This document shows positions 1-3,000 of a DNA stretch of 14,184 nucleotides, piece after piece. The stretch's first letter is position 1, and the number at the start of each line of letters is the position of its first letter. Made by a program: the position numbers. Source of the DNA: a virus. Lineage: Duplodnaviria; Heunggongvirae; Uroviricota; Caudoviricetes. The DNA is taken from the IMG/VR virus record IMGVR_UViG_2541047119_000008. The stretch is one strand, 5' to 3'.

Positions 1-3000
1 AAGTCTCTCCGTCCCAGTGGGTGGCAATAGGTGTGCTGGGAAGTCTGCTGTTTGGCCTGCTGACGTATCTGACAAATCTTTATTTCAAGATTAAAGAAGA
101 TAAGCGTAAGGCTGCGAGAGGTGAATAATGTCGCCATCATTACGCAAGGCTGTTGCTGCTGCTATTGGTGGTGGGGCTGCTGCCATAGCGTCTGTGCTCA
201 TCACTGGTCCGAGTGGTGACGATGGCCTGGAAGGTGTCAGCTACATACCATACGAAGATATCGTTGGCGTATGGACTGTATGTCACGGACACACCGGAAA
301 AGACATCATGCCCGGTAAAACGTATACCGAAGCAGAATGCAAAGCCCTCCTGAATAAAGACCTTGCCACGGTCGCCAGACAAATTAACCCGTACATCAAC
401 GTCGATATACCGGAAACAACGCGCGGCGCTCTTTACTCGTTCGTTTACAACGTGGGCGCTGGCAATTTCAGAACATCGACGCTTCTTCGCAAAATAAACC
501 AGGGCGATATCAAAGGCGCATGTGATCAGCTACGGCGCTGGACATACGCTGGCGGTAAGCAATGGAAAGGGCTGATGACTCGCCGCGAGATTGAGCGTGA
601 AGTCTGTTTGTGGGGGCAACAATGAGCAGGGTAACCGTTATTATCTCCGCTCTGGTTATCTGCATTATCGCCTGCCTGTCATGGGCTGTTAATCATTACC
701 GTGATAACGCCATCGCCTACAAAGAGCAGCGCGATAAAGCCACATCCATCATCGCTGATATGCAGAAGCGGCAACGTGATGTAGCAGAACTTGACGCCAG
801 ATACACAAAGGAGCTTGCTGATGCTAATGCGACTATCGAAAGTCTCCGTGCTGATGTTTCTGCTGGGCGTAAGCGCCTGCAAGTCTCCGCCACCTGTGCA
901 AAGTCAACGACCGGAGCCAGCAGCATGGGCGATGGAGAAAGCCCAGGACTTACAGCAGATGCTGAACTCAATTATTACCGTCTCCGAGGTGGAATCGACA
1001 AGATAACCGCGCAGGTTAACTACCTGCAGGAGTACATCAGGACGCAATGCCTGAAATAATTTTTTTTGCAAATCACAAAGTCCATTTAATGAGCCTCGCG
1101 ATGCGGGGCTTTTTGCAATAAATGCGTACCGCAACGCATGTTTTTTACACCGAACCTGCCCCTTTGGAATGGGCCTTTGAGGATACCAGTTAGTGCTGGC
1201 GAGCCTCGGTGGGCTGGTTTCCTGTGCGGCAAAGGTTCATTTCAAAGAGTAGGTACACGCTATGAAATCATTAACCCTCTTCAATCAACCAATCCGTATC
1301 GGTGAAGATGGCATGATCTGCCTCACTGATATGTGGAAAGCCAGTGGTAAAAGTGAATCTGAATCTCCGTACCACTACCTGCGAAACAAGCAGACCAAAG
1401 AGTTCTTGGCTGAGCTGGAGAAAAACCACGAATCTGTGGTTTTTACGGAACGCGGTGCGCACGGTGGAACTTATGGCGGAAAGTTCGTTGCTTATGATTA
1501 CGCAGCATGGCTAAACCCCGGATTTAAATATGCAGCCTATAAAGTCCTCGATGATTACTTCACCGGAGAGCTTCATCATCGGAACAGCTTAAGTGCGCAG
1601 CTCAACATGAAATGTCATGAGTTTGATCAGAAAAAAGACATGGCGAGCTTCTGTGGACAAGGCCTCGCGGCATGGCGCTACACGAAACCTGGTTTGATCG
1701 CTGAAATTAACTCCCTGGCTAACCAGTTGCAGATTTCGATCCCCGGGCTTCCGGGATGAGTGATCGTGTCATTGAATGCGCCTCCAGAGCGGGGCGCGAC
1801 TTCTCAGAGTTCATGAAAGGCGAGAAGGGTATGATGGAAGCATTGGCCTCGGTGGATGAGTTTGGCGAGCAGCTGCGCCTCAACGGCTGTGTCAATCATC
1901 ACTTTGTTAGCTACATGATGCGGAACTCGATCATGCAGGCATTCATGGACATGGCAAAAGCCGAGAGGAAAGAAGAGCGCCGGCGTAAGCGAGCGGAAGC
2001 AAAAGCGAAGTAGCCATTACAAAGCCCATCTACTGGTGGGCTTGATAATGGCTTATACCCTACACGGGATAACTTAACTGATATCCCTTTTAACGGATAA
2101 AGGTATTCAAGCCTGACACATCATGCGCTGTATCGTCGCTGTATTCCCGCATTAACCATGACCGTAGCCCGACGGGGAACTCCTTCTGCGCGAGTGTGCG
2201 GGAATAATCAAAAACGATGCACACCGGGTTTTTACCGCGCTAATGATTCGCGGGTTTGTCCCTCATGCTCGCCAGTCCTGTGCGGGGGTGGAAGAAACAG
2301 GACACTCACACAGATTCTTGTGGGTCGATGCTATTCCTTTCTGGATTATCCCGATGCCATTCATGCAAGGGCTGTATCAGACGTTCGTCATGGCTTTCAG
2401 GCTGACGGCTCCTCCCGGTGGGGTGGCCTGCCACGGGGCGGGAGCGTCGCGGAAAAAGGCTAGTTTTTGCATTTTTATCGGCCACCATCATCTTTGCATC
2501 TTATTGATTATTAATGGTTATTTGTTTTTTGTATGTCGAATTGAGTGTTTTTTGTTCGACATCGAACGCGTTTTCTTAAAGTTGTTCGCACGATGCATGT
2601 TTAAAGCTCTCCGGAGGAAATATGGATCATGAGTTGAAAAACCTGGTGCTGAATATTAATCAACTGGCGGCTTTATCTGGTCTGCACCGCCAGACTGTCG
2701 TGGCAAGACTGAAAAACATTCGTCCCGCTGGTGGACATGACAAACTCAAGCTATACCGGTTGACCGATATTCTGACTGAATTTATGGGGTTACCACCGCC
2801 GGTTGCTGAGGGCGAAATGGATCCACATGAACGCAAAGCCTGGTATCAGTCTGAACGTGAGCGTCTTAAGTTCGAACAGGAAACGGCACAACTCATTCCG
2901 GCCAGTGATGTCAGACGGGAGTTTGCCATCTGGGCAAAAGCGGTCGTGCAGGTGCTGGAGACATTACCGGATATTCTGGAACGTGACTGTGGTCTGCAGC

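Follow-up and report, generated by a model that had tools for sequence, protein, structure and literature searches.

The segment at positions 2014-2435 of the window, by which we mean the whole 14,184-nucleotide (nt) stretch of viral DNA analysed here (IMG/VR record IMGVR_UViG_2541047119_000008), is on balance probably best explained as a non-coding mosaic that carries a structured RNA element on its plus strand together with a cosQ-like packaging signal. Judged by the match boundaries in a sensitive search of phage records, it is a composite of four independently inherited pieces, which we call A, B, C and D. An earlier note on this DNA had remarked that the segment is retained, and it is widely kept across Escherichia coli and its phages: parts of it are found in 4096 of the 5426 complete E. 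coli genomes, and 565 phage records also contain some. The complete lack of conservation for which the note had also allowed was not seen. The pieces and the site that bounds them are as follows.

2014-2051, plus strand: piece A, a hairpin in two tiers at the close of the KilA-N accessory module upstream
2052-2122, no strand assigned: spacer between A and B
2123-2303, plus strand: piece B, a discrete conserved 181-nt structured element
2304-2405, no strand assigned: piece C, a lineage-specific non-coding spacer
2406-2435: piece D, which holds a cosQ-like heptamer
2436-2447, plus strand: the cosN cohesive end GGGCGGGAGCGT, which fixes the right edge of the segment and lies itself just outside it

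Each block has its own distribution. That at 2014-2050/2101 is common to P22-like, HK022, HK620 and HK106 phages; 2124-2231 occurs in lambda itself, and 2124-2302 in 933W-type and other Shiga-toxin (Stx) phages and in Salmonella phage ES18; 2304-2405 is found only in mEp460-type phages, and 2406-2468 is the cos core. The spacer is divided between two of these histories: the stretch 2014-2101 moves with the hairpin module (HK022, HK620, HK106), and flank clustering places 2102-2122 as one among more than 20 alternative left flanks of piece B.

On these comparisons, piece B is a discrete, horizontally shuffled element of 181 nt whose conservation reaches the level of base pairing on the plus strand, that of the late operon. 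A scan of IMG/VR with an 18-nt core pattern returned more than 120 loci, in which 22 left-flank and 20 right-flank clusters surround an invariant core, and the ends of the element are sharp, from (AU)GCGC... to ...GGAAGAAACNGGA. A covariance model (R1) built from 31 representatives finds a single copy in the window (2125-2306, plus strand, 207 bits) and unannotated copies in lambda (46869-47036, between bor and lambdap78) and in the DLP12 prophage of E. coli K-12 MG1655 (NC_000913.3, 579010-579178, between borD and ybcV), with further copies in Sakai Sp10, phage 1717 and ES18. Comparison across related prophages, which the earlier note had proposed as a check, thus reveals a part of the segment that is kept as a discrete unit and is shared with lambda, DLP12, Stx phages and ES18. 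BLAST places B at 11,791 positions in 4593 of the 5426 complete E. coli genomes (about 85%), with a median of 2 and a maximum of 11 copies per genome, and nearly all of the matches listed have no annotated feature under them. Tandem occurrence was seen on two IMG/VR contigs, one with two full copies 950 bp apart (5058-5238 and 6008-6188) and another with a second, partial copy (10713-10853).

Genuine matches are confined to Escherichia and Salmonella phages. A wide taxonomic spread was considered and rejected, as the matches in Pseudomonas, Bacillales, Actinobacteria and other groups are lambda control-DNA contamination: among the assemblies with copies identical to that of lambda are those of Pseudomonas, Kitasatospora, Cohnella, Brevibacillus and Flavobacterium, where the copies sit on contigs either about 48.4 kb or about 3.5 kb long, some of them marked as having very low coverage (about 1x), which look like such control DNA. 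A function on plasmids was likewise set aside, since the 696 plasmid matches are ColV Rz-iss(bor) phage remnants. On the ColV-type plasmid pMS15052A, a copy truncated by IS3 (3997-4106) lies upstream of the serum-resistance gene iss, beside remnants of Rz/Rz1.

As RNA, B would fold into a long irregular hairpin (P1-P2-P3-P3a) followed by two more (P4/P4a and P5), with these predicted helices.

2130-2135/2215-2220, plus strand: helix P1
2142-2151/2197-2206, plus strand: helix P2
2163-2167/2186-2190, plus strand: helix P3
within 2168-2177, plus strand: helix P3a, CCC/GGG
2226-2228 (GGG) with 2260-2262 (CCC), plus strand: helix P4
2235-2239/2249-2253, plus strand: variable hairpin P4a
2275-2281/2297-2303, plus strand: helix P5, with the conserved loop GGUGGAAGAAAC

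RNAalifold gives this element -31 kcal/mol on the plus strand and -6 on the minus strand. When 82 distinct copies are aligned with MAFFT, pairing holds in 96.5% of cells, compared with 36-60% when the partners are slid, and eight pairs change on both sides; the values seen for pairing, for the number of compensatory cells and for the covariation score are each reached by none of 500 shuffles. The alignment fitted to the model has 97.3% of its cells paired and 15 of 39 pairs changing on both sides, and on all five measures it is matched by 0 of 500 shuffles. Compensatory changes are found in P2, which reads CCCGGA/UCCGGG in lambda as opposed to CCCGCA/UGCGGG, in a further exchange of UUUCC/GGAAA for UUCCC/GGGAA, and in P5, whose versions alternate between CCUG/CAGG and CCGG/CCGG; in ES18, P4a has gone from CCGCG/CGCGG to CAGC/GCUG and five of the six P5 pairs are replaced, with pairing kept. 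The wobbles are one-sided: G·U occurs in 258 cells, spread over 24 pairs, and A·C in 41 cells over 9 pairs. Since A·C cells correspond to wobbles of the opposite strand, the excess of G·U points to the plus strand. The centroid fold of the single sequence reproduces P1-P3a. Between the window and ES18, lambda and Sp10, B is 79-84% identical, compared with 69-76% for the adjacent Rz coding sequence. The family, although of low diversity, thus keeps its pairing above controls, and does so on one strand.

The genomic context of B is regular in orientation. Of the 107 loci whose sequence reaches far enough upstream, 105 have an Rz homologue ahead of B, in all 105 informative cases on the strand of B and never on the opposite one, at a distance of 3 to about 1740 nt (only 3-12 nt in 28 loci), and terminase genes follow downstream, again on the same strand. 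Convergent morons on the minus strand stand beside it at most loci, ECs1967-like at 56 loci, lambdap78/ybcV-like at 23 and bor at 23. B accompanies cos-type, HNH/HK97-type and headful packaging modules alike; its distance to cos varies, with 1.5 kb in lambda, and in about 16 loci it lies roughly 20-45 nt ahead of a lambda-type cosQ region.

Because B has no promoter, terminator or conserved flanks of its own, it looks like part of the late transcript rather than a stand-alone small RNA (sRNA), and it most likely folds within the late mRNA. Its sense orientation within the late operon suggests that B would be transcribed only within the Q-dependent (Q-antiterminated) late RNA, just after the lysis cassette, and that it would act as RNA. 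It is possible that B is a cis-acting processing or 3'-end-protection element of the lysis-gene message, which would define and stabilise the 3' end of S-R-Rz once the late transcript has been cut, for example by RNase III or RNase E, and which would also act where that transcript is paired with antisense transcripts from morons or runs off DNA already cut at cos. Such a role in processing and stability, drawn by analogy, is the mechanism that we prefer, if only tentatively. It would fit the position of B at the end of the lysis module, its closeness to cosQ in several phages, a matter of tens of bases, with transcripts running off the cleaved DNA there, and the neighbouring convergent morons, whose transcripts would create RNase III substrates. 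In the modelled fold, P1 (6-7 bp) and P2 (10 bp), split by an internal loop of 5-6/8 nt, resemble RNase III sites, in which an internal loop interrupts a nearly continuous duplex of about two helical turns. RNase III hairpins lie between the genes of T7, and sib of lambda is another such processing hairpin. B could be compared with these in being an irregular, internal-looped hairpin in an intergenic position after a functional gene block, with the proposed job of a protective 3' structure left on the upstream message; unlike them, it is longer (181 nt, with five to seven helices), carries extended conserved single-stranded sequence and is optional in lambdoid phages.

Several observations weigh against a functional RNA, and against a protective one in particular. 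The lambdoid life cycle as such can do without B, as R1 finds no copy in HK97, HK022, phi80 or cdtI, and a protective hairpin would not need 181 nt with conserved unpaired stretches such as AUAAUCAAAAACGAU and CUCAUGGUCGCC. The folding energy of the single sequence is no better than that of shuffles (z = -0.5 on the plus strand and -0.2 on the minus strand), and in the MAFFT alignment the measure of further pair types is not significant (43 of 500 shuffles). The stronger covariation result comes from the alignment fitted to the model, and that alignment is tilted in the model's favour. The family has an effective sequence number of 1.53, a diversity so low that the covariation rests on few independent events, and the 3' domain is ambiguous, with competing folds. 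Finally, the RNA nature of B is read from sequence alone.

B is therefore best described as a candidate for a new RNA family, one for which the statistical support is modest, and apparently an undescribed one: searches of the literature by context and by the literal core sequence, with many subscription-journal papers outside their reach, found no description of it. It is like the orphan structured RNA motifs of the Rfam type in its conserved pairing, compensatory changes and fixed genomic context, and unlike them in that it is absent from Rfam 15, has a narrow taxonomic range and low diversity, and is backed by weaker statistics than most curated motifs. The late operon of lambda, whose genome is among the best studied of all, contains the element, as does the K-12 reference chromosome, and yet the approximately 11,800 copies of it over 85% of complete E. 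coli genomes are absent from Rfam and from genome annotation. If B is a functional RNA, it would add a new regulatory layer to lambdoid late gene expression, Shiga-toxin phages included, and it is readily testable through simple lambda genetics. A bolder proposal, of which we are rather doubtful, is that B belongs to a previously unrecognised class of functional RNA in lambdoid phages, lambda itself and the DLP12 prophage included, with an activity beyond passive mRNA protection, that spreads as a non-coding accessory module. Its activity might then be that of an antitermination RNA that modifies the polymerase, of an RNA that processes itself, or of a decoy expressed late against a host factor or defence system.

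The role of B could be accounted for in a few other ways. First, B could be a moron-like accessory module that yields a trans-acting non-coding RNA, freed from the late transcript to bind a host or phage factor; it might titrate Hfq, CsrA or an RNase as a decoy or sponge, for instance, or work against a defence system of the host. The unpaired stretches of B, among them an A-rich AAUAAUCAAAAAC tract and loops with GGA, show high conservation, and its optional, horizontally shuffled occurrence amid morons (with HK97, HK022, phi80 and cdtI devoid of it) and its very high copy number per genome are what such a module might display. We nevertheless consider it unlikely: B is without its own promoter or terminator, this analysis identified no target or partner, and the Hfq-crosslinking table for O157 Sakai, which covers uninduced cultures, has no peak on B, the peaks EcOnc10/11/12 lying on the adjacent minus-strand terminator.

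Second, B could act in cis on the polymerase, in analogy to put of HK022, strengthening read-through of terminators before the moron-rich region and the 20-kb morphogenesis operon. B always lies in sense orientation between the lysis cassette and the downstream genes, its architecture is one of several hairpins with conserved loops, and in many phages, Sakai Sp10 among them, terminator-bearing convergent morons directly follow it. Lambda Q, however, already gives processive antitermination, phages without B express their late genes normally, and in the window only cos separates B from the terminase genes. The put sites are two stem-loops just downstream of early promoters; B, which would likewise be a cis-acting multi-hairpin RNA read in the sense direction of a lambdoid operon, does not lie by early promoters, and lambda-type phages that carry it already use Q. 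The likeness is one of analogy, and a function of this type seems improbable. What keeps both this reading and that of a trans-acting decoy alive is the combination of long conserved unpaired tracts with an optional, moron-like distribution.

Third, B could act as DNA, either through a structure in single-stranded DNA, for instance a priming signal for rolling-circle replication, or, with no function as RNA, as a conserved linker that favours the homologous exchange of modules among lambdoid phages. The sharp breaks in homology on both sides and the many alternative flanks fit a recombination joint, folded single-stranded DNA would also tolerate G·T pairs, and B is near the chromosome end in several phages. 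A pure linker, though, would show neither compensatory changes that keep pairing (15 of 39 pairs) nor a one-strand bias of G·U, and its conservation would not exceed that of the neighbouring gene; the element also occurs with cos-type, HNH/HK97-type and headful modules at variable distances from cos, and we know of no priming site in this part of lambda. Explanations at the level of DNA fit the strand-biased covariation poorly, and we hold them to be just as improbable as a put-like function.

Fourth, the segment could contain, on one strand or the other, a separate sRNA gene driven by a promoter of its own, as do AgvB, AsxR, Esr41, STnc100 and the Pas RNAs of O157 and EPEC prophages. Such sRNAs are abundant in prophage late regions (PMC4104026, PMC8550237). 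The earlier note had raised both a small RNA and a promoter for the continuation of the late operon. The promoter found no support, as no sigma-70-like site was detected on either strand of 2014-2435; the small RNA did so in part, in that a conserved structured RNA-like element lies at 2123-2303 on the plus strand, but not as an sRNA gene, which would call for a promoter, a terminator and conserved flanks. The scan found no terminator-like site in 2014-2435, although the hairpin at 2014-2051 could end a minus-strand transcript, a UUUGU tail following it on that strand. Against Rfam 15, the window has no match at gathering thresholds, and B (2123-2303) together with its Sp10 and lambda copies has none at E <= 10; the same search correctly detected AgvB and STnc100 elsewhere in Sakai Sp10. 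The variability of the flanks of B excludes a shared promoter, and its structure and orientation favour the plus strand. For these reasons we judge a separate sRNA gene very unlikely.

The known sRNAs were also considered one by one as identities for B, and rejected. AgvB, AsxR, Esr41 and STnc100 give no Rfam match. Even with up to 3 mismatches allowed, the window has no complement of the PasB probe, and PasB sits between tail genes, namely a tail assembly gene and gpJ in E2348/69; PasA, PasC and PasD are ruled out by their position upstream of the holin. The peaks EcOnc10/11/12 (Tree et al., 2014, PMC4104026) first appeared to fall on B, but an offset of +137 nt between the 2014 table and the current Sakai record, derived from AgvB, moves them off it and onto a minus-strand terminator directly to the right of B in Sp10, whose sequence is absent from the window. 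In Sakai Sp10 (locus approximately 6447-6507, minus strand) this strong intrinsic terminator abuts the 3' end of B and, with that offset applied, coincides with the very abundant Hfq-crosslinking peak EcOnc11, to which EcOnc10 in Sp12 and EcOnc12 in Sp9 are homologous; EcOnc11 is probably an sRNA derived from the 3' untranslated region of the ECs_1967 (DUF3950-like) moron. ARAGORN found no tRNA-like element. B shares with the sRNAs of pathogenic E. coli prophages that it is a short, conserved, non-coding module of the late region, multicopy and left unannotated by standard pipelines. Those sRNAs, however, occupy the moron site that separates Q/PR' from the lysis genes or, in the case of PasB, a place between tail genes; they bring a promoter and a terminator of their own, many of them run antisense to the late operon, and B matches neither their Rfam models nor their published sequences.

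The region 2014-2621 contains only short or overlapping mechanical open reading frames (ORFs), and the earlier note's view that 2014-2435 has no convincing coding frame holds up. Pfam has no match for the plus-strand ORFs 2158-2463 and 2243-2632 or the minus-strand ORFs 2306-2491 and 2090-2224. In the alignment, two separate 1-nt insertions or deletions (at about 2329 and about 2370) set the window and the O157:H7 TR01 prophage apart from Ayreon, PhiR47_1 and mEp460, which means that both plus-strand frames are broken. Matches of the segment's ORFs to PHROG are weak (phrog_17397, of unknown function, E = 1.9e-15; phrog_6954), and that to phrog_17397 is split over two reading frames, one per plus-strand ORF. 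The two ORFs would moreover run across the site of cos cleavage and share sequence with the structured element, in which there is no codon periodicity and whose clades differ by insertions or deletions of 1-2 nt. Given the frame-breaking changes, the silence of Pfam, the split PHROG match and the span over cos, we treated these ORFs as non-coding; conservation of either plus-strand ORF at the protein level, which the earlier note had named as a reason to think otherwise, was not found. A leader peptide (MRCIVAVFPH, ATG...TAA) at the 5' edge of B was also rejected, its start codon not being conserved across clades. Phage depositors have called ORFs here inconsistently and on both strands, and the presence of B explains these conflicting hypothetical proteins. 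A small protein encoded by these ORFs or by those annotated in relatives (mEp460_059, the Ayreon 'putative late gene regulator', a minus-strand ORF of PhiR47_1) is hardly credible, even with the weak PHROG matches in its favour, as RefSeq/PGAP leave the homologous stretch of E. coli genomes, in their thousands, without any feature and the Ayreon coding sequence sits on a rearranged junction. In Ayreon (MF807953, 2930-3140), homology to the window stops exactly at cosN and is followed by a fragment like the 3' part of the small terminase gene and then by the right side of cos; the annotated regulator covers that junction, which is probably an assembly or terminal-repeat artefact.

By comparison with other phage ends, the segment is the right end of the phage chromosome, running to a lambda/Gifsy-type cosN at 2436, and its cos part is known biology, a textbook lambda signal in a Gifsy-type packaging module. 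That cosN forms the right boundary, as the earlier note had it, follows from the GenBank record of phage cdtI, which starts at the equivalent of window position 2436 and ends ...GGGTCCTTCCGGTGGGGTGGCCTGCCACG, and from lambda: window 2427-2452 reads ...CCTGCCACG|GGGCGGGAGCGT|CGCGG and lambda ...AGGTTACG|GGGCGGCGACCT|CGCGG, with ACG directly left of the cohesive end in both (2433-2435 in the window). The left half of the end, GGGCGG, is identical to that of lambda, and the differences fall at positions 7, 8, 9 and 11. Feiss and co-workers described a lambda-like cos group in which the right half varies and CG stands at the nicks, the cohesive end of Gifsy-1 differing at positions 8, 9 and 11 (PMC4669245). 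The window sequence has the features of such a lambda-type 12-nt 5' cohesive end, with the left half conserved and both nicks flanked by CG dinucleotides.

The packaging-termination sequence that the earlier note had suggested for the segment finds support, in the form of a cosQ-like signal, but only in its last 30 bp or so. The heptamer is as follows.

2407-2413, plus strand: cosQ-like heptamer GGCTCCT, 22 bp left of the nick

In the comparison with the lambda cosQ region that the earlier note had called for, it matches lambda cosQ, GGGTCCT (48473-48479, 23 bp left of the lambda nick), at 6 of 7 positions. Only 2406-2468 is common to phages with the same cos and other left flanks (cdtI, mEp043), which limits the packaging signal to about the last 30 bp of the segment and leaves the remainder without one. 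The 7-bp cosQ is highly conserved, is required for the termination of packaging and shows no apparent natural variation (PMC4669245). The canonical GGGTCCT stands at the homologous place in cdtI, Ayreon, PhiR47_1 and mEp460, and among related loci with this cos the canonical heptamer is found in 18, the G-to-C change being present only in the window and the O157:H7 TR01 prophage. Judged by this substitution, the GGCTCCT variant may terminate packaging poorly in that lineage. The site otherwise resembles that of the lambda/21/N15/Gifsy-1 group in its 12-nt end with GGGCGG as left half and CG at both nicks, in the similar ACGG-TCCT-CCGGTG context of the heptamer and its near-equal spacing from the nick, and in its location between the lysis/accessory genes and the small terminase gene. 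It differs from lambda cos in the single mismatch of the heptamer, in having a small terminase of the DUF1441 type instead of Nu1, and in lacking the lambda-type GATAATCATTATCAC stretch ahead of cosQ.

At the other end of the segment, the stem-loop that the earlier note had placed at 2029-2050 is real but larger, occupying 2014-2051 with two stems.

2014-2019/2046-2051, plus strand: outer stem of piece A, CCAUUA/UAAUGG
2022-2030/2035-2043, plus strand: inner stem of piece A, AAGCCCAUC/GGUGGGCUU

This hairpin stands immediately 3' of the stop codon of the ORF at 1756-2013 and has a folding energy of -22.1 kcal/mol, with z = -5.2 against shuffles on the plus strand and -2.7 on the minus strand. 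Its flanks, CAUUACA...GAUAAUG, are invariant across loci, and its inner stem exists in four unrelated but fully complementary versions (window, Ayreon, cdtI and phi80). It has no U-tract that would make it an intrinsic terminator, being followed by GAUAAUGG on the plus strand and UUUGUAAU on the minus strand, and the terminator scan was silent here. As it is always found directly after KilA-N/Rha-type accessory genes, as in phi80, HK97 and cdtI, comparison across loci assigns it to the upstream accessory module and not to cos.

Piece C is present in mEp460, Ayreon, PhiR47_1 and O157 prophages and is absent from cdtI despite the same cos. It has no significant fold (z = +1.0 and +0.2), and no repeats common to it and the cosB side were found.

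The window as a whole covers the late region of a lambdoid prophage, in which the segment is flanked by the following genes.

128-625: lysozyme
610-1059: Rz
1262-1759: KilA-N/ORF11CD3 accessory gene
1756-2013: small ORF
2014-2435: the segment in question
2622-3113: small terminase of the DUF1441 type, not Nu1
3113-5215: large terminase, 700 amino acids

Just 3' of Rz, at 1088-1139, lie two terminator-like hairpins, GAGCCUCGCGAUGCGGGGCUUUUUG and one at 1122-1139 with a U-run after it, which the late transcript must pass to reach the KilA-N genes and cos. Between cosN and the start of the small terminase gene, the window holds at 2553-2568 the palindrome TGTTCGACATCGAACG followed by a T-run, with the related half-sites GTCGAAT and GTTCGCACGA nearby; the small terminase of the DUF1441 type may bind to the palindrome and half-sites, which would make them the equivalent of cosB.

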